A stretch of DNA of 51,432 nucleotides from Minisyncoccota bacterium. GTDB taxonomy: Bacteria; Patescibacteriota; Minisyncoccia; Phycocordibacterales; GWA1-40-21. Position 1 is the stretch's first letter. Each line of letters begins with the position of its first letter. The translations under genes were made by a program, and so were the position numbers. Location: contig JBAYUW010000005.1 in NCBI GenBank assembly GCA_041674925.1, positions 1 to 51,432 on the forward strand, in the 5' to 3' direction. Below, piece by piece: positions 4,642 to 43,236 of the stretch. Under the pieces are notes generated by a model. That model was given only the letters and a program-made list of their open reading frames with translations, made no database searches and was not told where the DNA came from.

Positions 4642-4702
4642 TTCGGCGAAGTCTTAATGGTAGCATAGTCGATTTAACTTTGTCAAAAGTACATCAAAAC
4701 CG

Positions 4703-27463: not shown

Positions 27464-28954
27464 ATGTTAAAAATAATTGATAATTTTTTAAATAGAATTA
27501 CGATGTACAAATTTATTTTGTACTATCTGCTTTTGATTTTTGTTTCGGCGTTGGCTCTGAGTTTGTTTGGTGTCTTATCTTATCAACCTTTATTGCTTTT
27601 ATTCTCCGCGATTTTTATCACAGTTATCTGTTGGGTCGTGAATCGTCTCTTTGCCTGGGCCTTCAAGGCTCCAGCTAACGTCGAGTCGGTCTATATTACC
27701 GCCTTAATTTTATTTTTAATTATTACTCCACTGTCGGACTTTTCTGATTTCACCTATTTCAGTTTGGCTTTTTGGGCTTCGGTTCTAGCCATGGCCTCAA
27801 AATATATTTTGGCCATCAATAAAAAACATATCTTTAATCCTGTGGCTATCGCTCTGGTGTTGACGGCTTTCTTTTTAAATCAATCGGCCAGTTGGTGGGT
27901 GGGGACGAGTGTCTTGGCCCCGGTTGTTTTGGTCGGTGGTCTGCTCTTGATGCGAAAAATAATTCGCCTAGATTTAATCCTCAGTTTTATTTTGGTCGCC
28001 CTCCCATTAACTATTTTTTCTTTTGTCAGAAATGATGTGGCCTTGATGCAAAGTTTATGGATGGCTGTGACCGGTACAGCGATCCTCTTTTTTGCTTTTA
28101 CGATGCTGACCGAGCCATTGACTACACCTCCGACTCGTCTATCTCGCATTTTATATGGTGTCGTGACCGGTATATTGTTTTTCTTTTTTACACCAGTGGT
28201 GGCTTTGGCCGTCGGTAATATCTTTTCCTATTTAATTAGTCCAAAACAAAAACTCGTCCTGACTCTTAAAAAGAAAATTAAATCCGCCGAAGATATATAT
28301 GATTTTGTTTTCATTCCCGATCAGAAATTAAAGTTCCGCGCTGGACAATATTTAGAATGGACTATCGACGGCCGGGGCGCTGATAGTCGCGGTAATCGAC
28401 GTTATTTTACGATCGCCTCATCACCAACCGAAGAGGTGATTGTCTTGTCGGCTCGTTTTTATCCCGAGTCCAGTACTTTTAAAAAGAATTTAATGGCTCT
28501 TCAACCGGGCGACAAGATTACCGCTTCACAGCTGGCCGGGGATTTTGTCTTACCAAAAGATGTGAATAAAAAAATAGTCTTGATCGCCGGTGGTATCGGC
28601 ATCACTCCATATTATAGTATGATTAAAAATACGATTGATACCGGAGAAAAACGAGATATTGTTTTATTGTACTCAAACAAACTTTCTTCAGATGCCATTT
28701 ATCAATTTCTCTGGGATGAAGCAAAAGAAAAAATTGGACTCAAGACGATTTACGCCGTCACTGATCAGACTGATCCAAAATACACCGGGCGAATTACTCC
28801 CGAATTGATTCAAAAAGAAATTCCTGATTATCTAGAACGCTATTTCTATCTATCCGGCCCACACAATCTGGTTGTCTCATTTGAGGACACACTCAAATCT
28901 CTCGGTGTCCATCGTTCTCACATCAAGATCGACTTTTTCCCAGGGTTTGTGTAA
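27464..28954 (+). CDS. polytopic membrane domain (RnfD/NqrB-like) fused to an FNR-type FAD/NAD(P)H oxidoreductase
   Basis: About 8 TM helices with TEPLTTPP (compare the TDP.T.P of RnfD/NqrB). C-terminal RRYFTIASSP (FAD RxYS/T motif) and IAGGIGITP (NAD(P) binding). Confidence 0.65.
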   Translation: MLKIIDNFLNRITMYKFILYYLLLIFVSALALSLFGVLSYQPLLLLFSAIFITVICWVVNRLFAWAFKAPANVESVYITALILFLIITPLSDFSDFTYFSLAFWASVLAMASKYILAINKKHIFNPVAIALVLTAFFLNQSASWWVGTSVLAPVVLVGGLLLMRKIIRLDLILSFILVALPLTIFSFVRNDVALMQSLWMAVTGTAILFFAFTMLTEPLTTPPTRLSRILYGVVTGILFFFFTPVVALAVGNIFSYLISPKQKLVLTLKKKIKSAEDIYDFVFIPDQKLKFRAGQYLEWTIDGRGADSRGNRRYFTIASSPTEEVIVLSARFYPESSTFKKNLMALQPGDKITASQLAGDFVLPKDVNKKIVLIAGGIGITPYYSMIKNTIDTGEKRDIVLLYSNKLSSDAIYQFLWDEAKEKIGLKTIYAVTDQTDPKYTGRITPELIQKEIPDYLERYFYLSGPHNLVVSFEDTLKSLGVHRSHIKIDFFPGFV

Positions 28955-29037
28955 GGGACTAAGTTGAAGTTCCATCTTAATTTTGCTAGGATAATCATAG
29001 ATCGTTCGGAGGTGCAAATAGTAGATGGAGGAGTAAG

Positions 29038-29280
29038 ATGAAGAAGGTAGCAGTCCTAAACTTCCCAAGTGAATCGCCGATCAGGGTGGTTCTTCATGCC
29101 GAATGGCAGCGTCAGCGCGGCCGACAGCCATCGATGCCGTATCGGGGGATTCTTAACCCTCGTGAAGCACATCTGGTGGCCATGATTGACGCGGCCGCAC
29201 TGCTCGCTGAGGCGCTCGAGGATCTTCTGGCAAAGTCGCTCCAGAAGGAAGAAGCGCAAACGGCATCAGTTCCAGCCTAG
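29038..29280 (+). CDS. hypothetical small protein (GC-rich islet)
   Basis: SD GGAGGAG 4-5 nt upstream of the ATG. Followed by a GC-rich hairpin at 29299..29332. No family recognised. Confidence 0.45.
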   Translation: MKKVAVLNFPSESPIRVVLHAEWQRQRGRQPSMPYRGILNPREAHLVAMIDAAALLAEALEDLLAKSLQKEEAQTASVPA

Positions 29281-29298
29281 CGCCTAGCGGCTGAATCA

Positions 29299-29340
29299 GG
29301 GGACCGGCTTTTCTCACGAAAGGCCGGTCCCCAAACTTTT
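29299..29340 (+). terminator. putative intrinsic terminator
   Basis: GGGGACCGGC...GCCGGTCCCC 10-bp stem followed by AAACTTTT (weak U-tract). Confidence 0.5.
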
Positions 29341-29462
29341 ATGTTGGATAAATTATTAACTTTTTGTTACCGATATTATCGGTGGGGGTGGTGAAGAGGT
29401 GGTGGAACCTCGGCCGAGTTATCCACATTTGGTCTGGGTGACTGGTGTGTTAGAATGTGGCC

Positions 29463-30125
29463 GTGAAAATTTTAGACTTGCCAAAAATTGATCGACCGCG
29501 AGAAAAATTAGAGAAATACGGCATTAGTCGATTAACTGATGTTGAAATCGTCGCAATTCTAATTCGTACCGGGATCAAAGGGACCAATGTCTTGGAATTG
29601 TCTAAGCAGATTTTAAAAAAGATTTCACAAGTTGGTGTCGAAAAAATTGCCATAAAAGATTTACTGGAAATTAAAGGCCTGGGTCAAATCAAAGCCGGAC
29701 AAATTATTGCCAGCCTCGAACTGTGGTCTCGTTTATTTCAGAACAAAAAAACCGAGCTTTTACTATCACCACAAAGTGTCTGGCTGGAAATGAAAGATTT
29801 ACGAGCTAGTCGAAAAGAACACTTTGTCGTTTTCTATTTAGATACTCAGAATCAAATTATTCAAAGAGAAATTGTCTCCATTGGCACCTTAAACGCCAGC
29901 CTGGTCCACCCTCGTGAAGTTTTCGAACCCGCCATTCGTCATTCGACCGCCCAAATTATCTTAGCCCATAATCATCCTTCCGATAGTACGGAACCGTCGG
30001 AGGAAGATATCGCCGTTTCTCGTCGTTTGATGGAGGTGGGGAAGATCATGGGAATAGATATCCTCGATCACGTCATCGTGACAAAAAGTAGTTATGTCAG
30101 TATGAAAGAACTTGGCTTGCTTTAA
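29463..30125 (+). CDS. radC: RadC-family JAB-domain protein
   Basis: ILDLPKIDRPREKL...LTDVEIVAILIRTG N-terminus and JAMM motif HNHPSDSTEPSEED. The ORF track starts at GTG 29457. I prefer GTG 29463, which is 6 nt after TGtTAGAAT (29448..29456). Confidence 0.85.
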   Translation: MKILDLPKIDRPREKLEKYGISRLTDVEIVAILIRTGIKGTNVLELSKQILKKISQVGVEKIAIKDLLEIKGLGQIKAGQIIASLELWSRLFQNKKTELLLSPQSVWLEMKDLRASRKEHFVVFYLDTQNQIIQREIVSIGTLNASLVHPREVFEPAIRHSTAQIILAHNHPSDSTEPSEEDIAVSRRLMEVGKIMGIDILDHVIVTKSSYVSMKELGLL

Positions 30126-30145
30126 TTTTAGGTGTACGTTATAAT
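30117..30145 (+). promoter_or_regulatory. promoter of the Phd/RelE operon
   Basis: TTGCTT (30117..30122), a 17-nt spacer, then TATAAT (30140..30145). GTAC-N8-GTAC flanks the -10 box and may be an autoregulation site. Confidence 0.5.
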
Positions 30146-30179
30146 GTACCTGTATTAATTTAATAACAATTTTAAAAAT

Positions 30180-30548
30180 ATGAATATAAAAATGAAGAAC
30201 ATTATCTCTATCACCGAAGCCCGAAGCAGTATTTTCGATATTGCCGAGAATGTTCAAAAATTAGGTAATCATTATCTTTTCACTGAAGGTGGTAAACCCA
30301 AAATGGTTGTGATGTCGGCCGAGGAATATGATAATTTGATGGAGGATTTGGCCCTGGCCGCTGATCCCAAGTTTGCCGCTAGGATGAAGAAGGCACACGA
30401 AGATATCGCCAGTGGCGACTATGTCACTTTAGATGAATTCAGACAAGAACTGGGGCTCGGATCTGGTAAAAAAATTGAGAATGCTATGGTGATGGATAAA
30501 AGTAAGAAGGCATATAAGACCAGACACACTGGTAAAAAGAAGAAATAA
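30180..30548 (+). CDS. type II antitoxin, Phd/YefM family (long basic tail)
   Basis: ISITEARSSIFDIAENVQ...KPKMVVMSAEEYDNLMEDL is a classic Phd/YefM N-terminal domain. Lies directly upstream of a RelE/ParE-like ORF. Confidence 0.8.
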   Translation: MNIKMKNIISITEARSSIFDIAENVQKLGNHYLFTEGGKPKMVVMSAEEYDNLMEDLALAADPKFAARMKKAHEDIASGDYVTLDEFRQELGLGSGKKIENAMVMDKSKKAYKTRHTGKKKK

Positions 30549-30560
30549 TATTTTATTATT

Positions 30561-30818
30561 ATGTATTATGTTTACATTCCAAATCAGATAAAAAGGGCGA
30601 CTAAAAAATTTCCGAGACCAATTCAAGAAAGGATAGAAGAAGTTTTGACTTTGCTGGAAACAAATCCTTATCTCGGTTCAAAAATGCATGGGGTAATGGA
30701 TGAGCAGAGGAAAATAAAGATTTCAAATTACCGTATTATTTATCAAATAATCGAATCAAAAATCGTTATTGAAATTTTAGAAATCGAAAGTCGTGGTAAT
30801 ACCTCGTATGATCGGTAA
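30561..30818 (+). CDS. type II toxin, RelE/ParE family
   Basis: 85 aa with KKFPRPIQERI...YRIIYQIIESKIVIEILEIESRGNTSY, the typical RelE/ParE fold signature. Confidence 0.8.
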   Translation: MYYVYIPNQIKRATKKFPRPIQERIEEVLTLLETNPYLGSKMHGVMDEQRKIKISNYRIIYQIIESKIVIEILEIESRGNTSYDR

Positions 30819-30829
30819 AAATCCATAAT

Positions 30830-31099
30830 ATGAAAAAATCTTGTGCTATTTGTGGCAAGAAAATAAAGATCATCCTATATACAGATAAAAGTTACCGCGG
30901 TGGTCATTATTTTGGAAAGATAGAGATCTGCTCAAAAAAGGAGGAGGCTAAAGCTCTTAGGCTCGGCACACATCCATATAAAATCGCCGGCCGTGTTTTT
31001 GATGTCTTAAATTACGATCCTAAACCCTATAAATACCTAGAGTATTGGGAGTGTCCCAAGTGCTATTGGGGCCAACGGCTCAACCCAAAGGCCCGTTGA
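30830..31099 (+). CDS. hypothetical zinc-ribbon protein
   Basis: CAIC...CPKC four-Cys pattern. The last 9 codons (GQRLNPKAR*) are encoded by the left copy of the island-flanking hairpin repeat. Confidence 0.45.
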   Translation: MKKSCAICGKKIKIILYTDKSYRGGHYFGKIEICSKKEEAKALRLGTHPYKIAGRVFDVLNYDPKPYKYLEYWECPKCYWGQRLNPKAR

Positions 31100-31107
31100 G
31101 CCGTTGG
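31072..31107. repeat. left copy of the 32-nt hairpin direct repeat flanking the R-M island
   Basis: CCAACGGCTCAAC-ccaaaggccc-GTTGAGCCGTTGG. The core AACGGCTCAACCCAAAGGCCCGTTGAGCCGTT (31074..31105) recurs at 38882..38913 with one mismatch. Confidence 0.85.
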
Positions 31108-31153
31108 TGGGTGGCTTTAAGTATGAGGGTTTTTGTGGTAGGATTTAGGAATT

Positions 31154-32977
31154 ATGAAAAAGTATCTAGAGAAAGTAGCTAAGACGTCTGAAAATATTGA
31201 AAACGAAAATTTGCAGAAATTACGGGCGGTTTTTCCTAATTTTGTTAAGGATGGACAGGTAGATTTTGATGCCTTGCAAAAATTTTTTGATAAGGAAGGT
31301 ATTTTATCTGGGGAAGAAAAGTTTGGTTTGAATTGGGCTGGTAAAAGTAATGCCTTCAAAGCTATTCGTACTCCAGCCATTGGTACGCTTGTTCCTCAAC
31401 CAGAAGAAAGTAAGAATTGGGATTCTACTGAGAATGTTTTTATTGAAGGAGATAATCTTGAAGTTTTGAAACTTCTTCAGAAGAATTACAGAGAGAAGAT
31501 AAAAATGATTTATATTGATCCGCCGTACAATACCGGTAAGGATTTTGTGTATAAGGATAATTTTACCCAGGACGTGTCTGATTATTATGAGCAAACGGGA
31601 CAGACAAAGGGCGGTATAAAAATGACCGCTAATACTGAAAAGAATGGTCGTTATCATAGTGACTGGTTGACCATGATGTATCCACGTCTTTTTCTTGGTA
31701 GAAATTTACTTAAAGATGACGGAGTAATTTTTGTATCTATTGATGATAATGAGGTGGCAAACCTAAGAATGATAATGGATGAAATTTTTGGAGAGGAAAA
31801 TTTTGTAGCACAAATCGTATGGCATAGTAAATATACAGTTGCAAACGATACAAGATATTTATCTCAACAACATGAATATGTTTTGTGTTATGCAAAAAAT
31901 AAAGAGAATATAGATAAACTAAGATTACCTAGAACTCAAAAAATGGATGACCGATATACTAATCCTGATAATGACCCAAGAGGTCCGTGGAAAGCCACCC
32001 CACTACACGCAAAAAGTGGAAATGGCGAAAGTTATACATATATATTTAGTAATGGTGTAAAATGGAAAGCTCCGCAAGGAAGATATCCAAGATACGGATT
32101 AATAACATTAAGAAGGCTTGATGAAGAAAACAGATTATGGTTTGGAAAGGATTTAAAAACAACACCCTCTGTAAAAACTTATTTATCAGAACTTTCTACC
32201 GATGGTTGTGTTTCTGGTGATGTCTGGCATTTTGATGACGTTGGACATACACATTCTTCAAATGAAGAATTGGCTGATGTTTTGGGTAAGGGGATGTTTG
32301 ATAATCCAAAGCCAACACGACTCGTAATGAAAGCAATTCAATTATCATGCAATGAAAATGATTTGGTTTTAGATTTTTTTGGGGGTTCGGGTACTACAGC
32401 GCATGCAGTAATGCAATTGAATGCCAAGAAAGAGGGTGTTGAAAATAGAAAGTGGATTTGTGTTCAATTACCAGAAGTTACAGATGAAGACAGTGAAGCT
32501 TATAAAGCTGGATATAAAACAATAGCTGAAATTTCTCGCGAGAGAATTCGTCGAGCTGGAGACAAGATTAAGAAGGGGGATATTGGTTTCAAATCCTACA
32601 AACTTTCTACTTCAAATTACCGCCAGTGGAATGTTTCTGGTGTACAAAATGAGAAAGAAATATTAAAAACATCAAAATTATTTCTTGAAAATCCTTTGGT
32701 TGATAAATATGATGAGAAGTCAGTCGTATATGAAATTCTTTTGAAAGAAGGTTTTGATTTGAATTCTAAAATTGAACAGCAAAAAAGTGATTTGAAATCA
32801 TGGATTGTTATTGATGGAGACAAAAACCTTTTTGTCACATTTGTCGAAAATGTCACAAAAGAACAAGTCGAAAAACTTGGACTTTCTGAAAACGACACTT
32901 TTGTTTGTTTTGATAGCTCTTTGGATGACACAACAAAGGTCAATTTAGGGAGGTATATTAATGTAAAGGTGATATAA
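31154..32977 (+). CDS. mod: type III restriction-modification methyltransferase (Mod), beta-class N6A/N4C
   Basis: IYIDPPYNTG (motif IV) lies upstream of DFFGGSGTTAHA (motif I), the permuted order typical of type III Mod. 607 aa. Confidence 0.9.
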   Translation: MKKYLEKVAKTSENIENENLQKLRAVFPNFVKDGQVDFDALQKFFDKEGILSGEEKFGLNWAGKSNAFKAIRTPAIGTLVPQPEESKNWDSTENVFIEGDNLEVLKLLQKNYREKIKMIYIDPPYNTGKDFVYKDNFTQDVSDYYEQTGQTKGGIKMTANTEKNGRYHSDWLTMMYPRLFLGRNLLKDDGVIFVSIDDNEVANLRMIMDEIFGEENFVAQIVWHSKYTVANDTRYLSQQHEYVLCYAKNKENIDKLRLPRTQKMDDRYTNPDNDPRGPWKATPLHAKSGNGESYTYIFSNGVKWKAPQGRYPRYGLITLRRLDEENRLWFGKDLKTTPSVKTYLSELSTDGCVSGDVWHFDDVGHTHSSNEELADVLGKGMFDNPKPTRLVMKAIQLSCNENDLVLDFFGGSGTTAHAVMQLNAKKEGVENRKWICVQLPEVTDEDSEAYKAGYKTIAEISRERIRRAGDKIKKGDIGFKSYKLSTSNYRQWNVSGVQNEKEILKTSKLFLENPLVDKYDEKSVVYEILLKEGFDLNSKIEQQKSDLKSWIVIDGDKNLFVTFVENVTKEQVEKLGLSENDTFVCFDSSLDDTTKVNLGRYINVKVI

Positions 32978-32981
32978 GGTT

Positions 32982-34391
32982 ATGAAAAAAATTTGGTCTG
33001 AAAAAATTTCCATAGATAAGTTAAATCTTTGGGATGAAAATGCCCGTTTCCCCGAGGAGTATTTTAATAAGTCAGAAAAATATCTGATTGATTATTTTCT
33101 TAAAAAGAAGGATTTTAAGATAGAATCTCTCGCCAAAGAAGTTGTTGATGAATTTGACTTACCTCAACTTGAAAAGATTGTCGTATATAGGTATAAAAAC
33201 AAAAATATTATTCTAGAAGGTAATAGACGCGTCGTTGTTTATAAATTACTTTCTGAACCAACTCTGACAAACGACACGAACATACAGTCATTTTTTCATG
33301 CTCTTTCCGGGAAAGTAAAAATAAATAATAGTTTTCAACTTGAAACTCTAGTCACAACTGACAAGGATTCTGGGTTAAAATATGTAGATCGAAAACATAC
33401 CAAACATAATAATGAAGTAGGTTGGGGTGAACCAGAACGACATAATTATAAAGTAAGAAGAGGTAATGCGAGTGCAAAGACGGAGGTATTTAGATATGAA
33501 TTAGGTAAGTTAGTTAAAAAACTTGATTTGCCAGAAGAAATAAAGGAAGCTGTTCTTGGTAAGGGGTCAGTATCAACTTTCTATCGTTTAGTAGATAGTG
33601 AACCAGCGTTAAAATTATTAGGTGTTCAAAAAAATGATGATGGAACTATTAAAATTAAGAATCAGAAGGAATTTAGCGAAAAGCTTAAAGTAATTATTTT
33701 TGATATAGTTACAAAACGTATTATTGATGGTGAAAAATTGGACTCTCGTTTTCTTAATAAAACAAATGAAAAAGAAAAATATCTGAAGTCTATTGGTGAA
33801 GGGGATAAAAAAAGAGTAGAGAAAGAAATTAAAAAGAATACTTCTACAGATATATTTGGTAATAAGATCATTGATATAAGGACGGAAAAAGGTGGTTCTA
33901 TTTATTCTGAAAGAGTCAGACAATTTCAATCTTTAATCGATCCTACCTTGTTGTTACCAGCAGTTAGTCTCGATAAAATAAAAGAAATTTTCAGTGAATT
34001 ACAAAAGGTTAATTTAGAAGCATGTCCCACAGCGGGAGCTTTATTGTTAAGGACATTGATGGAAATATCAGTCAAAGAGTTTGCATCAAAGGTTAGTATA
34101 AGAATTGATAAGGATGGATATTTTAGAACCGATACTGGAAAAGCAAAACAATCCTTAAAAGAAAAAATTGATTATATTTCTGAAAAATATGCACCGCAGG
34201 ATATCAAAGATATTGTTAAAATTTTTAATGGAAATTCAGTCTTTACCGATAATCTAAATAATATTGCACATAGCAGACATATATTTTCATCAAAAGATAC
34301 AGTTAAAAGTTTATGGAAAAATTCAAAATGTTTTTGGGAATTTTTAATTGCAAAAATTATTGAAATTGAAAAGACAAAAAAACAATTATGA
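32982..34391 (+). CDS. ParB/Srx-like N-terminal domain protein, C-terminal region unknown
   Basis: ISIDKLNLWDENARF and IILEGNRRVVVYKLL resemble the ParB N-terminal box and the G-x-R-R arginine patch. The remaining roughly 350 aa were not recognised. Starts 4 nt after mod and overlaps dam by ATGA. Confidence 0.45.
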   Translation: MKKIWSEKISIDKLNLWDENARFPEEYFNKSEKYLIDYFLKKKDFKIESLAKEVVDEFDLPQLEKIVVYRYKNKNIILEGNRRVVVYKLLSEPTLTNDTNIQSFFHALSGKVKINNSFQLETLVTTDKDSGLKYVDRKHTKHNNEVGWGEPERHNYKVRRGNASAKTEVFRYELGKLVKKLDLPEEIKEAVLGKGSVSTFYRLVDSEPALKLLGVQKNDDGTIKIKNQKEFSEKLKVIIFDIVTKRIIDGEKLDSRFLNKTNEKEKYLKSIGEGDKKRVEKEIKKNTSTDIFGNKIIDIRTEKGGSIYSERVRQFQSLIDPTLLLPAVSLDKIKEIFSELQKVNLEACPTAGALLLRTLMEISVKEFASKVSIRIDKDGYFRTDTGKAKQSLKEKIDYISEKYAPQDIKDIVKIFNGNSVFTDNLNNIAHSRHIFSSKDTVKSLWKNSKCFWEFLIAKIIEIEKTKKQL

Positions 34392-35236
34392 AATTTTATT
34401 CACCATTAAGATATCCTGGGGGTAAAAATAAACTGGCCAAGTTTGTGGCTTTATTATGCGAGAAAAACCATATTAATGGTCATTATATTGAACCTTATGC
34501 TGGCGGAGCCTCGGTTGCACTATTTTTGTTATTAGAAGGATATGTAAAAGAGATAACAATAAACGATCTAGATAGAGCTATATATGCTTTTTGGTATTCT
34601 ATGCTTAATGATACAAAAAGGTTTTGTAATATGATATTAAAAACTGATATAACAGTAAAAAATTGGCATAAATTTAAAAAAATACACAAAAATAAGGAGA
34701 AAGTAGATTTATTTGATTTAGGTTTCGCCACCTTTTTTTTGAATAGAACAAACCACTCTGGGGTTATTGATGGTGGAATAATAGGGGGATATCAACAAAA
34801 AGGAGACTATAAGATAGATTGCCGCTTTAATAAAATAGATTTAATCAATAGAATTAAATTGATTAGTGGTTATAAAGATAGAATTCATGTCAAAAATTTG
34901 GACGCACTTGATCTAATTGACGTGTCCCAAAAAAGTAGTCGTAGTAAAAATACTATTTTTTATTTTGATCCGCCATATTTTATGAAGGGACAATCACTTT
35001 ATATGAATTCGTATCAGCCGAATGATCACAGGGAAGTTAGCGAGAAAATTAAAAATATAAATAATGCTAGATGGATAGTGTCGTACGATGATGTTTTACC
35101 TATTAGAAAATTATATAAAGATAAAAAAATAAAAAGTATGAAGCAAGAAATTATATATACAGCGCATACGGTTAGTCTTGGCAAGGAGATTATGTTTTTT
35201 GACCGAGGTTTGTTAGTACCTAAATACGCAAAATAA
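34388..35236 (+). CDS. dam: DNA adenine methyltransferase, D12 (Dam) class
   Basis: SPLRYPGGKNKL (motif I region) and FYFDPPYF (motif IV). Confidence 0.85.
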   Translation: MKFYSPLRYPGGKNKLAKFVALLCEKNHINGHYIEPYAGGASVALFLLLEGYVKEITINDLDRAIYAFWYSMLNDTKRFCNMILKTDITVKNWHKFKKIHKNKEKVDLFDLGFATFFLNRTNHSGVIDGGIIGGYQQKGDYKIDCRFNKIDLINRIKLISGYKDRIHVKNLDALDLIDVSQKSSRSKNTIFYFDPPYFMKGQSLYMNSYQPNDHREVSEKIKNINNARWIVSYDDVLPIRKLYKDKKIKSMKQEIIYTAHTVSLGKEIMFFDRGLLVPKYAK

Positions 35237-35239
35237 TTT

Positions 35240-35947
35240 ATGGACAAGATATTAGATAATGAAATAACAAATTCTGTAAAGAATGAAGTAAAAAAAAGAT
35301 TAAGTTCATCTATTTATGGAACTTTTGTTATTTTTTGGTTAGTTTGTCATTGGAGATTTGTACTAACAATCTTTTTTGTTAGTGAGGATTTGATTTTGAA
35401 GCAAACTGGTCTCTTAAAGAACGATTATCTTCTCTTTAATTATTTCGATGTTGGTAGTTTATATTTTTGGTCTTCGTGGTCGTTACCATTTTTATTTACT
35501 TATGCTGCTATATGGATGTTACCGAAATATGTACTAATTCCAGCTTTTAAGAAAGAGGCACAAGATCAAACAATAAAAAAAGTATTTGAACTTAATGAAG
35601 AGAAGCTTGTCATCGTTGCGCAAACAAATTTAGAAAAAGAAAATGCTAAACAAGTGACAGAGGTGGCTAAGCAAGTCGTTCAGGAGAAAAAAATTAGAGA
35701 TACAAATCCAAAAATTGAGTGGGATGCAGATTATATTAATTTTTCAAAAAATGGTTATGCAAATATTTTTTTAAATTTTCTTAATAAATTTTACTCCGGG
35801 GATAGATATCTTCATTATTTTAGCCCAAATGATGTTTCTTATTTTGACGCCCTGGGTCTAATTAAAATCGATAAAAATAGTGTCGATACCTTAAGTGATA
35901 AAGGTAAGTATTTTGCTTTAAAAATAAAGGATAAAGAAAGTTTTTAA
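35240..35947 (+). CDS. hypothetical membrane protein (two or three TM helices, coiled coil, C-terminal globular part)
   Basis: Hydrophobic segments YGTFVIFWLVCHWRFVLTIFFV and FWSSWSLPFLFTYAAIWMLP. Charged helix EAQDQ...QEKKIRD. Embedded between dam and res with 3-nt and 1-nt gaps. Confidence 0.45.
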   Translation: MDKILDNEITNSVKNEVKKRLSSSIYGTFVIFWLVCHWRFVLTIFFVSEDLILKQTGLLKNDYLLFNYFDVGSLYFWSSWSLPFLFTYAAIWMLPKYVLIPAFKKEAQDQTIKKVFELNEEKLVIVAQTNLEKENAKQVTEVAKQVVQEKKIRDTNPKIEWDADYINFSKNGYANIFLNFLNKFYSGDRYLHYFSPNDVSYFDALGLIKIDKNSVDTLSDKGKYFALKIKDKESF

Positions 35948-35948
35948 G

Positions 35949-38555
35949 ATGAAATTTAAATTTTCCAAAAACTTAGATTATCAGTTGGACGCCATTGATG
36001 CGGTGGTGGGGATTTTTGATACTGGGAAAAATATTGCAAAAAAAGAAAGTGGTTTTGTCCTGCAGAATGCTAGAGCGATCATTGCAAATGAGTTGGAGGT
36101 CGATAGTGATAGGGTTTTAAGAAATGTGCGGGCTTTGCAGGAACAAAATAAAATAGAGCCAAAGGTAGATAAAATAGAATCTTTGGATTTTTCTGTGGAA
36201 ATGGAAACTGGTACCGGTAAAACCTATGTTTATTTAAGAACTGTTTTGGAATTAAATAATAAGTATGGTTTAAAGAAATTTATTATTCTTGTACCGTCGG
36301 TAGCTATCCGTGAAGGGGTGCTTAAAACTATTGAGCAAACCAAGGATCATTTCAGAGAAATATACAATACTAATTTTGGGTATTTTGCTTATGACTCAGA
36401 TAAACTTTCCCAAGTTCGGGATTATATTCAGTCAAATGATATACAGATCATGATAATGACCGTTCAATCATTTAGAACAGATACAAATATACTTCGCACA
36501 AGCCCAGATCGTTTTAATGGTGAAAAACCCATTAATTTAATTGCTGAAATTAGACCCGTGGTAATAATGGATGAACCACAAAATATGGAAGCCGATCAAA
36601 CAAGAGAAGCTATAGAATTATTAAAACCTCTTTTCAAACTTCGCTATAGTGCTACTCACAGAGAAATACATAACCTTGTATATAAATTGACTCCAGTGGA
36701 GGCCTATAGGAGAGGTCTAGTAAAGAAAATATCTGTTTTTGGGGTAAAGGAGGACAATGCCGGAGTTTTTCTTTTTAAGGTTAAGGAAATAACAACTAAG
36801 AAAGGAGAAAATCCAAAAGCAAAGGTTTTGATTGAGGTTAAAAAAGCCGATGGAACTTATGAACAGAAAGAAGTAAATCTTCAGGCTGGAAAGGATTTAT
36901 ATAGAGAATCAAAAAAGAATGATAAGTATGAGGGTTTATTGGTCCAAGATATAGATGCAAATCATAATAGAGTAGAACTTTCTGATGGAAAATATTACGA
37001 ACTTGATCAGGCTGATGAAAATAAGGAAGTAATATTTAGAACACAAATTAGGGAAACTATCAAAGCGCATTTTGATAAGCAAAAAGAGATAGGGGAAGAT
37101 GTAAAGGTACTTTCTCTTTTCTTTATAGATAGAGTTGATAATTATATTCATGAGGATTCTTTATTAAGAAATATTTTTAATGAAGAATTCGAAAAACTGC
37201 AGGGAAACTATGCAAAATTTAAAAATGTAGATGTTAAAACCGTTCACAAGGGTTATTTTGCTAGTAAGAAAGTTAAGGGGGAAATAGAGTATAAAGACAG
37301 TACGAGTGGGAGCTCAAAAGAAGATAGGGAGGCTTACGATTTGATCATGAAAAATAAAGAGCAACTATTATCTTTTGTGGAACCTGTATCTTTTATATTT
37401 TCTCACTCTGCCTTGAAAGAAGGTTGGGATAATCCGAATATTTTTCAAATCTGTACTTTACGAGAGACTAAATCTTTAATGAAGAAAAGGCAGGAGATAG
37501 GGCGTGGACTTCGATTGCCAGTTGATATAAATGGAACTAGAATTACTGATAATCCAGAAATCTCTGTTTTAACGGTTATTGCTAACTCTAGTTATGAGGA
37601 ATACGCTGGAGGCTTGCAACAAGAATTTGAAGAGGCTGGTTATAAAGGTCAGACAGATATTAGAAACGCTAAAGAAAAGAAGATTAAAGTAAAAACTACC
37701 AGATACTTGGACTCCGAAGAGTTTAAAGAATTATGGAAAAGAATTAGTAAGCGAACCAAGTTCAGTCTAGAAGTTTTGACCGATACATTAGTAAAGAGGG
37801 CGGTAGAGGAAATAAATAGATTAAATATTAAAAATATCACCGTGACGGTGGAAAAAGGTCAGATATATTTTGATAAAGAGGGAAATTTAAAAAATATTCG
37901 CCAAGCAAGTTCTTCTGGTTATAAAATAAGTAAAAAGGCTAATTTGCCAAATATTGTTTATCGAATTTCTAAGGAGGTGGGGATTACTCGAGGGACTGTT
38001 TATAGTATCTTGTCTCAAATAGAAAATATGGATTTGATCTTTGATAATACCGAAGAATTTATCAGAAGTATTATTTTAATTATAAAGACAGAATTGAATA
38101 ATTTATTAGTGAATGATGGTCTGAAATATATTCCTACAGGAGATTCCTGGGAAATTAAACTTTTATTTAGTGATTTTGAAGCTTTACCTAGTAAAACCGT
38201 AAAAAGTGATCGGTCAGTGTTTGATAGGGTGGTCTTTGACAGTAAAGGTGAAGAGGACTTTGCTGTTAGTCTCGAGAATAGTCGGAACGTAAAAGTTTAT
38301 ACAAAACTTCCGAGAGGTTTTGAGGTGGATACACCGCTAGGTAAATACATTCCAGATTGGGCTATAGTTTGGAATACTGATGAAGGTGATAAACTTTATT
38401 TGGTAAGAGAAACAAAGTTTGAGTATAATAATTTAGATCATGAACTGACCTGGGAAGAAAATAATAAAATAAAGTGTGCGGAAAAGCATTTCAATACTAT
38501 TAGAGTAGATTATAAAATATGTGAAGCAAAAGATTTAAAAGATTTATTAAAATAA
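35949..38555 (+). CDS. res: type III restriction endonuclease Res subunit (SF2 helicase plus PD-(D/E)xK nuclease)
   Basis: METGTGKTYVY (motif I), VIMDEPQNM (motif II), YSATH (III), LKEGWDNPN (V), QEIGRGLRL (VI). C-terminal IPDWAIVW...LVRETKF nuclease motif. Confidence 0.9.
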   Translation: MKFKFSKNLDYQLDAIDAVVGIFDTGKNIAKKESGFVLQNARAIIANELEVDSDRVLRNVRALQEQNKIEPKVDKIESLDFSVEMETGTGKTYVYLRTVLELNNKYGLKKFIILVPSVAIREGVLKTIEQTKDHFREIYNTNFGYFAYDSDKLSQVRDYIQSNDIQIMIMTVQSFRTDTNILRTSPDRFNGEKPINLIAEIRPVVIMDEPQNMEADQTREAIELLKPLFKLRYSATHREIHNLVYKLTPVEAYRRGLVKKISVFGVKEDNAGVFLFKVKEITTKKGENPKAKVLIEVKKADGTYEQKEVNLQAGKDLYRESKKNDKYEGLLVQDIDANHNRVELSDGKYYELDQADENKEVIFRTQIRETIKAHFDKQKEIGEDVKVLSLFFIDRVDNYIHEDSLLRNIFNEEFEKLQGNYAKFKNVDVKTVHKGYFASKKVKGEIEYKDSTSGSSKEDREAYDLIMKNKEQLLSFVEPVSFIFSHSALKEGWDNPNIFQICTLRETKSLMKKRQEIGRGLRLPVDINGTRITDNPEISVLTVIANSSYEEYAGGLQQEFEEAGYKGQTDIRNAKEKKIKVKTTRYLDSEEFKELWKRISKRTKFSLEVLTDTLVKRAVEEINRLNIKNITVTVEKGQIYFDKEGNLKNIRQASSSGYKISKKANLPNIVYRISKEVGITRGTVYSILSQIENMDLIFDNTEEFIRSIILIIKTELNNLLVNDGLKYIPTGDSWEIKLLFSDFEALPSKTVKSDRSVFDRVVFDSKGEEDFAVSLENSRNVKVYTKLPRGFEVDTPLGKYIPDWAIVWNTDEGDKLYLVRETKFEYNNLDHELTWEENNKIKCAEKHFNTIRVDYKICEAKDLKDLLK

Positions 38556-38569
38556 TATTTAAAACACCC

Positions 38570-38869
38570 ATGCAAACTATCACCTTAATAATCATCGGAC
38601 TTGTCGCTATCGGATTTGGATATTGGCTGGGGAAAAGGGGGAGATTGGAGAAGCCTCGGGTGACACAAACCGAAGAGAAAAAACAGAATTTGGAGGCGAT
38701 AATGGGATTGATGGAGAGCGGGAATCAGCCTTTGACGAACTATCAGGTCGAGCAGATGCTTGGCATACCGGAATCGACAGTGACGAGGTATTTTGATGAG
38801 CTGGAGAAAGCAGGGAAGGTGCGTCAGGTGGGGACGACTGGGCAAGGGGTATTTTATGAGAAAATATAA
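38570..38869 (+). CDS. membrane-anchored winged-helix (MarR/ArsR-like HTH) small protein
   Basis: N-terminal TM helix TITLIIIGLVAIGFGYWLG, then LTNYQVEQMLGIPESTVTRYFDELEKAGKV. GC-rich, unlike the preceding R-M genes. Confidence 0.5.
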   Translation: MQTITLIIIGLVAIGFGYWLGKRGRLEKPRVTQTEEKKQNLEAIMGLMESGNQPLTNYQVEQMLGIPESTVTRYFDELEKAGKVRQVGTTGQGVFYEKI

Positions 38870-38879
38870 GGCTTAATCG

Positions 38880-38915
38880 GGAACGGCTCAACCCAAAGGT
38901 CCGTTGAGCCGTTCC
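38880..38915. repeat. right copy of the hairpin direct repeat flanking the R-M island
   Basis: GGAACGGCTCAAC-ccaaaggtcc-GTTGAGCCGTTCC. The core matches 31074..31105 at 31 of 32 positions. Confidence 0.85.
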
Positions 38916-38925
38916 TAAAATATCT

Positions 38926-42795: not shown

Positions 42796-43236
42796 ATGAT
42801 AAAAGATTTTGATAAATGGAACGAGAAGAAGAAAAGTATTCATTGGACTAACCAACCCACAATTTTTCATGAACGAGAAATTTGGTGGTGTGCCCTTGGA
42901 GTCAATATTGGATTTGAGGAAGATGGCAAGAACGAAAATTTTGAAAGACCTGTTTTAATAATCAAAAAGTTTAATAGACACGTTGCCTGGATTATACCCT
43001 TAACGACTCAAAAACATAATGATGTTTTTCATTATCAACTTAAAACCAGTAAAACTTTTATCATCTTATCGCAACAAACATCGATCAGTTCAAAGAGATT
43101 AGTGCGTTTTATTGAGAAAATTTCCGAAGATGAAATTCTATTCATTTTTGAACTACTAAAAAGTTTTTATACTTTGAAACACATTTCTACAAAAAGCGAT
43201 TCCCGCCCTTTTGGGGCGGGATCTCCGTTGGCCTAA
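42796..43236 (+). CDS. PemK/MazF-family toxin-like protein, no adjacent antitoxin recognised
   Basis: REIWWCALGVNIGFEEDGKNENFERPVLIIKKF...WIIPLTTQ matches the MazF/PemK core (G.E..G..RP.L.I...PLT). Confidence 0.6.
   Translation: MIKDFDKWNEKKKSIHWTNQPTIFHEREIWWCALGVNIGFEEDGKNENFERPVLIIKKFNRHVAWIIPLTTQKHNDVFHYQLKTSKTFIILSQQTSISSKRLVRFIEKISEDEILFIFELLKSFYTLKHISTKSDSRPFGAGSPLA

Follow-up and report, generated by a model that had tools for sequence, protein, structure and literature searches.

In one lineage of type III restriction-modification (R-M) systems, the junction between the methyltransferase gene mod and the restriction gene res appears to be a slot for interchangeable, promoterless and co-directional defense cassettes, a reading to which we assign a probability of about 0.75. 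The locus on which it centers lies on contig JBAYUW010000005.1 of a Minisyncoccota bacterium (assembly GCA_041674925.1), in a stretch of 51,432 nt that we refer to as the window and whose positions serve as coordinates throughout. Here, mod and res are separated by three genes, of which two are predicted to constitute the named defense system PD-lambda-5 (A and B in the following), and the third encodes a membrane protein of 235 residues, which we call TM235. We compared this arrangement with more than 110 related loci, designated by the letter L and a number. A first-pass annotation, made from the sequence of the window alone, had taken the five genes for a functionally integrated unit. They are the following:

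31154..32977, + strand: mod, type III (beta-class) N6-adenine DNA methyltransferase, 607 aa (Pfam, PADLOC, motifs)
32982..34391, + strand: PD-lambda-5 A-like protein, 469 aa (PADLOC, phrog_9592, predicted structure)
34388..35236, + strand: PD-lambda-5 B, D12/Dam-class N6-adenine DNA methyltransferase, 282 aa (PADLOC, Pfam, phrog_56)
35240..35947, + strand: TM235, membrane protein, 235 aa (hydrophobic segments, predicted structure)
35949..38555, + strand: res, type III restriction subunit, superfamily 2 (SF2) helicase with C-terminal endonuclease, 868 aa (Pfam, PADLOC, motifs)

Together, these open reading frames (ORFs) tile positions 31154–38555 with a coverage of ~100%. None of the five is truncated, and their catalytic motifs are intact. 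The junctions measure +4, -4 (an ATGA overlap), +3 and +1 nt, so that the ORFs, coordinates and spacings of the first-pass annotation are exactly reproduced. The GC content is uniformly low (0.28–0.34) from mod through res, with the three genes in between, which we refer to as cargo, slightly below mod and res.

Canonical type III R-M systems, of the EcoP1I / EcoP15I type, consist of adjacent mod and res genes; they cleave DNA in an ATP-dependent manner at unmodified sites in inverse orientation, and their Mod hemimethylates the sites. The window locus shares with them the domain architecture of Mod and Res and the order of the genes, with mod located 5' of res on the same strand, but it departs from an adjacent two-gene unit in that 2,972 nt with three genes lie between the two. 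The proteins themselves had been recognized by their motifs in the first-pass annotation, and this assignment is borne out by Pfam and PADLOC. Mod matches the Pfam family N6_N4_Mtase (3.7e-43) and, over its full length, the PADLOC model MTase_III (3e-195), and its DPPY motif at residue 122 precedes FGGSG at residue 409, which is the motif order of the beta class. Res matches ResIII (5.2e-17), DEAD (6.2e-10) and, at residues 755–858, RE_endonuc (1.5e-32) in Pfam as well as REase_III (8e-223) in PADLOC; GTGKT at residue 88 and DEPQ at residue 208 belong to the SF2 core, which is followed by the C-terminal PD-(D/E)xK nuclease. Phase-variation repeats were sought in mod and res, and none were found.

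The separation of mod and res extends well beyond the window. In a scan seeded with the window Res, for which one genome per GTDB species was considered, we obtained 80 loci. Mod and res are parted in 21 of 21 informative scan loci with a Res at least 54% identical to that of the window, as well as in the locus L005 and in the window itself, and the separation of 0.65–5.6 kb is invariably occupied by one to five tightly packed, co-directional genes. In a rough neighbor-joining tree of Res, these loci form one uniformly split clade, and its sister, the nanoarchaeote locus L034, is also split. A second large clade, with Res identities of 37–42%, has mod and res 3–224 nt apart in 22 of 36 loci (3–35 nt in 20 of these); the remaining 14 are split and scattered over several lineages, a few of them with only small, possibly spurious ORFs in between. 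The premise that homologous mod-res pairs are normally adjacent, from which the first-pass annotation had proceeded, consequently does not hold for the closer relatives, since every informative one of them is split, each with different cargo. Furthermore, the 107 junctions in 38 split loci have a median length of 7 nt (≤20 nt in 72 of them), and co-directional ORFs fill a median of 97% of the gap between mod and res. As it recurs in all these loci, the tight packing seen in the window is not a chance feature.

The content of the slot, by contrast, is highly variable. Across the loci, the cargo comprises ~50 families, mostly singletons, and is dominated by defense, abortive infection (Abi) and toxin modules; about half of the cargo proteins that we examined one by one, TM235 included, have no Pfam match. 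The recognizable cargo includes:

L026, 7112–9999: complete SIR2 + HerA pair with junctions of 7, -4 and 1 nt
L019: Mrr + DUF3800 + TM235
L060: GmrSD_N
L014, L029 and L031: Schlafen/AlbA_2 with HATPase_c_4
L012: trypsin-like protease + HEPN_AbiU2
L018 and L022: NYN
L027: HEPN RiboL-PSP
L015: CHAT protease
L054 and L055: AAA_21 + DUF4276, the PADLOC system HEC-01
Further families: RhuM, Fic, ApeA and HepT

The cargo of the window can be compared with that of L005, a syntenic locus whose RadC, Mod and Res proteins are 66%, 68% and 88% identical to those of the window. The 5' and 3' parts of mod as well as res are 82–86% identical in nucleotides between the two loci, whereas the cargo differs: the slot of L005 contains a TM235 homolog (49%) together with an unrelated gene of 213 aa, but no A+B pair. 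Within mod, the center (positions 31813–32357) is without nucleotide homology to L005 and is flanked by parts of 83–86% identity, as might be expected if the target-recognition domain had been exchanged and the specificity altered with it. The mod gene and the TM235 homolog of L005 appear interrupted; a run of N, representing a scaffold gap, is found inside this mod at positions 4651–4661 of L005, and the apparent interruptions may be assembly artifacts rather than pseudogenes. Overall, the cargo genes are nested and co-oriented, their content varies among homologous hosts, and the same genes are also found in non-embedded form, as is characteristic of embedded cassettes. Judged by these comparisons, the locus seems to be neither a chance insertion confined to a single case nor a new system with a fixed set of five genes.

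The first two cargo genes of the window are best assigned to PD-lambda-5, an experimentally validated two-gene system that emerged from a functional selection in Escherichia coli (Vassallo et al., 2022; PMC9519451). Its prototype protected against nearly all phages tested, and its discoverers refer to it as a compact RM+Abi-like system; moreover, it required an mrr-deleted host (PMC9519451), which is consistent with an active methylase. In the window, residues 1–455 of the 469-aa protein match the 466-position PADLOC model PD-Lambda-5_A (3.9e-48), and the full-length protein matches the phage protein family phrog_9592 (2.9e-28). The 282-aa protein matches PD-Lambda-5_B (6e-115), the Pfam family MethyltransfD12 (8.4e-18) and the DNA methyltransferase family phrog_56 (1.5e-48), and has a DPPY motif at residue 194, in agreement with its earlier description as a Dam-class methylase. 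Both models are matched over their full length, and A is located immediately 5' of B on the same strand, with the ATGA overlap between them. The first-pass annotation could not map the locus to any named type, which these matches contradict as far as A and B are concerned; its suggestion of a nested second R-M system was, for these two inserted genes, essentially right.

The A protein had further been labeled ParB-like, a description that applies at the level of the fold. Its AlphaFold model, computed with a 52-sequence alignment, has a predicted local distance difference test score (pLDDT) of 85.4 and suggests an N-terminal ParB/Srx-like domain followed by a helical C-terminal domain. In a Foldseek search against the PDB, the top 23 matches are all ParB, Noc, KorB, Spo0J or sulfiredoxin structures, with probabilities of at least 0.9 for the top 16, although these matches are weak by their E-values (0.01–0.6) and TM-scores on the query (≤0.25). 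At the sequence level, the label found no counterpart: neither the whole protein nor its individual domains yielded a useful Pfam (ParBc included) or NCBIfam match at E-values up to 10, and PDB sequence searches with the single sequence and with the 52-sequence profile returned no relative. Residues 79–83 (EGNRR) are invariant across the A protein family; members of the ParB/Srx superfamily are characterized by a GxxR nucleotide-binding motif in addition to their fold. PD-Lambda-5 has also been listed among the HEPN-containing systems, with reference to its non-methylase protein (bioRxiv 10.1101/2024.10.26.620412); in the window A protein, no Pfam match to HEPN was obtained, even with the isolated C-terminal 150 residues at E-values up to 10.

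The A+B pair occurs without fixed partner genes in several other settings. The closest A homolog (91%; B 66%) is found in L009, in a stand-alone A+B pair within another defense island, next to Eco57I-type, T5orf172/ResIII, ThsB-TIR and GmrSD genes. Nucleotide homology between the window and L009 amounts to 81% over 2,135 nt and starts a mere 10 nt upstream of the start codon of A, as would be expected of a cassette without a promoter. In L116 and L117, A+B (A 72%) is free-standing among housekeeping genes, and in L119 and L120 it lies downstream of a type I R-M system (A 79%). The first-pass annotation had itself named a known self-contained system among the inserted genes as an outcome that would speak against its reading, and for the A+B pair this is what we find. 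Between mod and res, the order Mod-A-B-Res without TM235 is seen in L118 (A 69%), and it recurs in L010 and L011, where A is only 27% identical to the window protein and B 63–66%. The histories of A and B therefore appear to differ, given these values and those of L009. More distant A homologs in phage and plasmid collections are only 22–24% identical and have no annotated methylase alongside, and an A-protein profile found no relatives in IMG/VR. A conserved third PD-lambda-5 gene after B was considered and rejected, as the genes that follow B in L010, L116 and L119 are related neither to one another nor to TM235. As a separate observation, L119 (2418–3491) and L120 carry a Shedu-type SduA_C gene embedded between hsdS and hsdR of their type I R-M system, followed by a YgjP-like gene and then by PD-lambda-5 A+B, which is another stacked embedded arrangement.

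The third cargo gene encodes TM235, for which the designation as a membrane protein is supported by two hydrophobic segments (approximately residues 24–53 and 82–100) and by a confident helical model (pLDDT 87.6). This model features a long helix at residues 74–155 and a C-terminal domain of the order H-H-H-beta-beta, which carries the invariant KGK of an "LTxKGKYF" motif. Searches with the whole protein and with its domains at E-values up to 10 gave no useful Pfam or NCBIfam match, and Foldseek searches against PDB and BFVD gave only non-significant matches (E-values of at least 0.5), mostly to winged-helix domains. A PADLOC match to CARF6 (1.9e-4) was discounted, as it is weak and falls into a charged coiled-coil region. 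A profile search retrieved 1,267 representative clusters at E-values up to 1e-3, and most of the matches listed are full length with ~230–260 aa; by this measure, TM235 appears to represent a real, sizeable and unannotated family.

Eight distinct loci (the window, L005, L013, L016, L017/L096, L019, L092 and L095) have TM235 in the mod-res slot, and six more have it next to other R-M genes, so that ~14 of ~19 distinct contexts have R-M or methylase genes nearby. TM235 is non-embedded in at least 13 loci, where its neighbors include an EcoRI-type methylase, hsdS, a C5 methylase with R.HinP1I, LexA-fused N6/N4 methylases, another C5 methylase and Schlafen-like genes; in a few loci, no R-M gene is in view. 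No conserved partner gene was found for it. From this distribution, TM235 would seem to be an independent module that usually resides beside type I, II or III R-M genes, and it can be regarded as a new candidate defense component, identified through its embedding.

If the mod-res junction is indeed a slot for exchangeable cassettes, a single promoter upstream of mod would read all five genes, or six with the small gene that follows res and is described below. Mod and Res would work together as type III enzymes normally do, PD-lambda-5 would add another methylation mark along with an effector of its own, and TM235, anchored in the membrane and with its winged-helix-like domain in the cytoplasm, would provide a third layer of defense. 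These three layers would be stacked in parallel, sharing regulation and inheritance rather than forming one machine, and the cassettes would be swapped by recombination in the conserved flanks formed by the 3' part of mod and the 5' part of res. We consider such a turnover plausible. Several points weigh against this picture or qualify it. No recombination sites or repeats were found at the cargo junctions, and scans for sigma-70 promoters and terminators within the operon gave counts equal to those of shuffled controls, which makes them uninformative in this AT-rich sequence from the candidate phyla radiation (CPR). Co-transcription, enzymatic activity and the independence of the layers are deduced from sequence. 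The split frequencies given above pertain to relatives of the window Res and should not be read as rates for type III systems at large, and several of the loci are contigs of metagenome-assembled genomes. Finally, four or five loci (the window, L010, L011, L118 and a fragment, L032) carry A+B in the slot, and this recurrence, together with the constant occupation of the slot in the clade, could mean that the cargo has become functionally necessary to the R-M lineage.

In one alternative, type III R-M would have evolved, in this CPR-centered clade, into a platform whose junction must carry cargo, and the cargo would be functionally tied to the R-M system, for example as a guardian or as a spacer that delays the expression of Res. 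TM235 would then be a new defense component that works with R-M systems of types I–III, as a membrane-tethered, DNA-binding (winged-helix) sensor or effector. We regard this as possible, albeit doubtful. In a related reading, which we judge somewhat less probable still, the cargo would be a guardian or backup in the manner of PrrC, held latent by Mod and Res or sensing them, and would fire when a phage disables restriction. PrrC provides a precedent for an R-M-embedded effector that is activated by anti-restriction (PMC12707154), and the occupation of the slot in every member of the clade, the many Abi- or toxin-type effectors among the cargo (HEPN, NYN, SIR2, proteases) and the preference of TM235 for R-M or methylase neighbors would all fit. 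Yet PD-lambda-5 was validated as a stand-alone system and occurs by itself in L009 and L116, the same slot is filled elsewhere by entire known systems, SIR2-HerA and Mrr among them, and the cargo varies too much to share one physical interface. Moreover, the three cargo proteins of the window, searched against PADLOC and Pfam, gave no match to a PrrC/RloC-type ABC ATPase with anticodon nuclease.

The notion of the first-pass annotation, a new composite system of five co-evolved components that act as one machine, draws on the operon-tight junctions and the uniformly low GC content of the five genes, and on the recurrence of a four-gene Mod-A-B-Res version in L010, L011 and L118. We nevertheless consider it very unlikely. 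Among the related loci, the full set of five is found in the window only; L005 has TM235 and an unrelated gene in place of A+B despite its 88% identical Res, A and B show separate histories in L010 and L011, each of A, B and TM235 turns up in unrelated contexts, and no third gene is conserved after B. Since the components occur independently and their combination is unique, they are probably not a fixed composite system, and the comparative data appear to have largely refuted the idea of functional integration. The slimmest prospect of all is that a chance insertion separated mod and res and that the R-M system is now inactive or in decay. This reading could invoke the position of the locus in a variable island at a hotspot, the slightly lower GC content of the cargo and the apparent interruptions of mod and TM235 in L005. 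These interruptions, though, coincide with the scaffold N-run, while in the window every one of the five ORFs is complete and the catalytic motifs are preserved; furthermore, the split is retained across the clade at Res identities from 54% to 88%, which points to purifying selection.

The surroundings of the operon contain the following further features:

28954..38925, no strand: variable genomic island, ~10 kb (break of nucleotide homology to L111)
31074..31105, no strand: left copy of a directly repeated 32-nt hairpin, 31/32 identical to the right copy
38570..38869, + strand: small winged helix-turn-helix (wHTH) protein, 99 aa (Pfam HTH_IclR)
38882..38913, no strand: right copy of this repeat, flanked by the wHTH gene and the convergent dnaE

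In a comparison with L111, the closest relative (DnaE 87%), nucleotide homology ends at position 28953, the end of an NQR-like gene, and resumes at position 38925, the stop codon of dnaE. Because of this break, the R-M operon, a RadC gene, a Phd/ParE pair and a small ORF appear to make up a variable island of ~10 kb at a hotspot beside dnaE. At the same site, L111 has four small genes and L113 an IS200-type Y1 transposase, while L112 has no insertion and continues from dnaE directly to thrS. The 32-nt repeat brackets the region from mod through the wHTH gene and is present in two copies only in the 51-kb window, with none in shuffled sequences; it was absent from 110 related loci compared. It forms a hairpin with a stem of ~14 bp (left copy -30 kcal/mol, right copy -24.7 kcal/mol, z-score -4.9), and could be either an att-like insertion scar or a terminator or repetitive extragenic palindromic (REP)-type element. 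The wHTH gene begins 14 nt past the stop codon of res and matches Pfam HTH_IclR (8.1e-6). Its GC content of 0.47 (0.57 at third codon positions, GC3), compared with 0.28–0.34 for mod through res, suggests a different history. L017, L095 and L096 have a homolog (42% identical) after their res genes, and a further one is found near TM235 in L002; it is possible that this gene is a sixth gene of the operon or a regulator of the locus.

Several neighboring genes deserve mention in their own right. In six related loci (the window, L005, L010, L011, L024 and L029), mod is preceded by a RadC-like JAB-domain gene (29457–30125 in the window); this gene directly adjoins mod in L005, and in the window a Phd/YefM-ParE toxin-antitoxin pair (30180–30818, just upstream of the R-M block) and an 89-aa ORF intervene. 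The presence of RadC upstream of mod may reflect a conserved link to the type III clade. Beyond dnaE, the window has a gene for a PemK/MazF-like toxin (42796–43236). In L112 (5651–6994), a reverse transcriptase gene (RVT_1) and an adjacent bAvd gene, upstream of dnaE, resemble a diversity-generating retroelement. DnaE homologs also place the window in Patescibacteria, with matches of ~70–72% identity from Minisyncoccia, Paceibacterota, Taylorbacteria and Parcubacteria. Some close homologs of the window DnaE (P0175, P0178, P0181, P0189, P0221, P0251 and P0257) measure ~1,430–1,530 aa and contain intein and LAGLIDADG domains (PF14890, PF14528); the window DnaE is without either.

A clade in which the mod-res junction is always filled, mostly from Patescibacteria and other uncultured lineages, offers a cheap and well-delimited place for finding new defense genes. 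It also has implications for annotation, as tools that demand adjacency of mod and res may miss or split such systems, and the output of PADLOC or DefenseFinder for the window would be a pair of overlapping systems rather than a new one.

Each element of this arrangement can be set against a known counterpart. The PD-lambda-5 prototype has the same unit of A overlapping a downstream B that encodes a D12-class methylase, a likeness established through the PADLOC hidden Markov models, but it comes from an E. coli prophage, where it is autonomous and has a promoter of its own, whereas the window pair has no visible promoter and is nested in the R-M operon of a CPR genome. PrrC, in the type Ic locus EcoprrI, is likewise an accessory defense gene inside an R-M operon (PMC12707154); it is an anticodon nuclease physically masked by a type I system, whereas the host in the window is of type III and no such domain was detected. 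The nearest parallel is the ‘guilt-by-embedding’ principle of Payne, Hughes, Fineran and Jackson (bioRxiv 10.1101/2024.01.29.577857), whose main text describes defense genes embedded in multi-gene systems (Hma, BREX, DISARM and type I R-M), 96.7% of these genes being co-oriented with the host system. As described there, the genes between the host components are variable, share the orientation of the host and also occur non-embedded elsewhere, and some cargo families, such as HEC-01 (AAA_21 + DUF4276) and GmrSD-like genes, are common to both sets. Type III systems are not named as hosts in that main text, although its supplementary Figure S8 may cover them, and no description of embedding between mod and res was found in the literature that we searched. 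Measured against the main text of that preprint, the embedding phenomenon is therefore already known, as is PD-lambda-5, and what appears to be new is an extension of guilt-by-embedding to type III R-M, in which a single, well-defined slot between mod and res is filled in every member of a CPR-centered clade and has thus become fixed across it.

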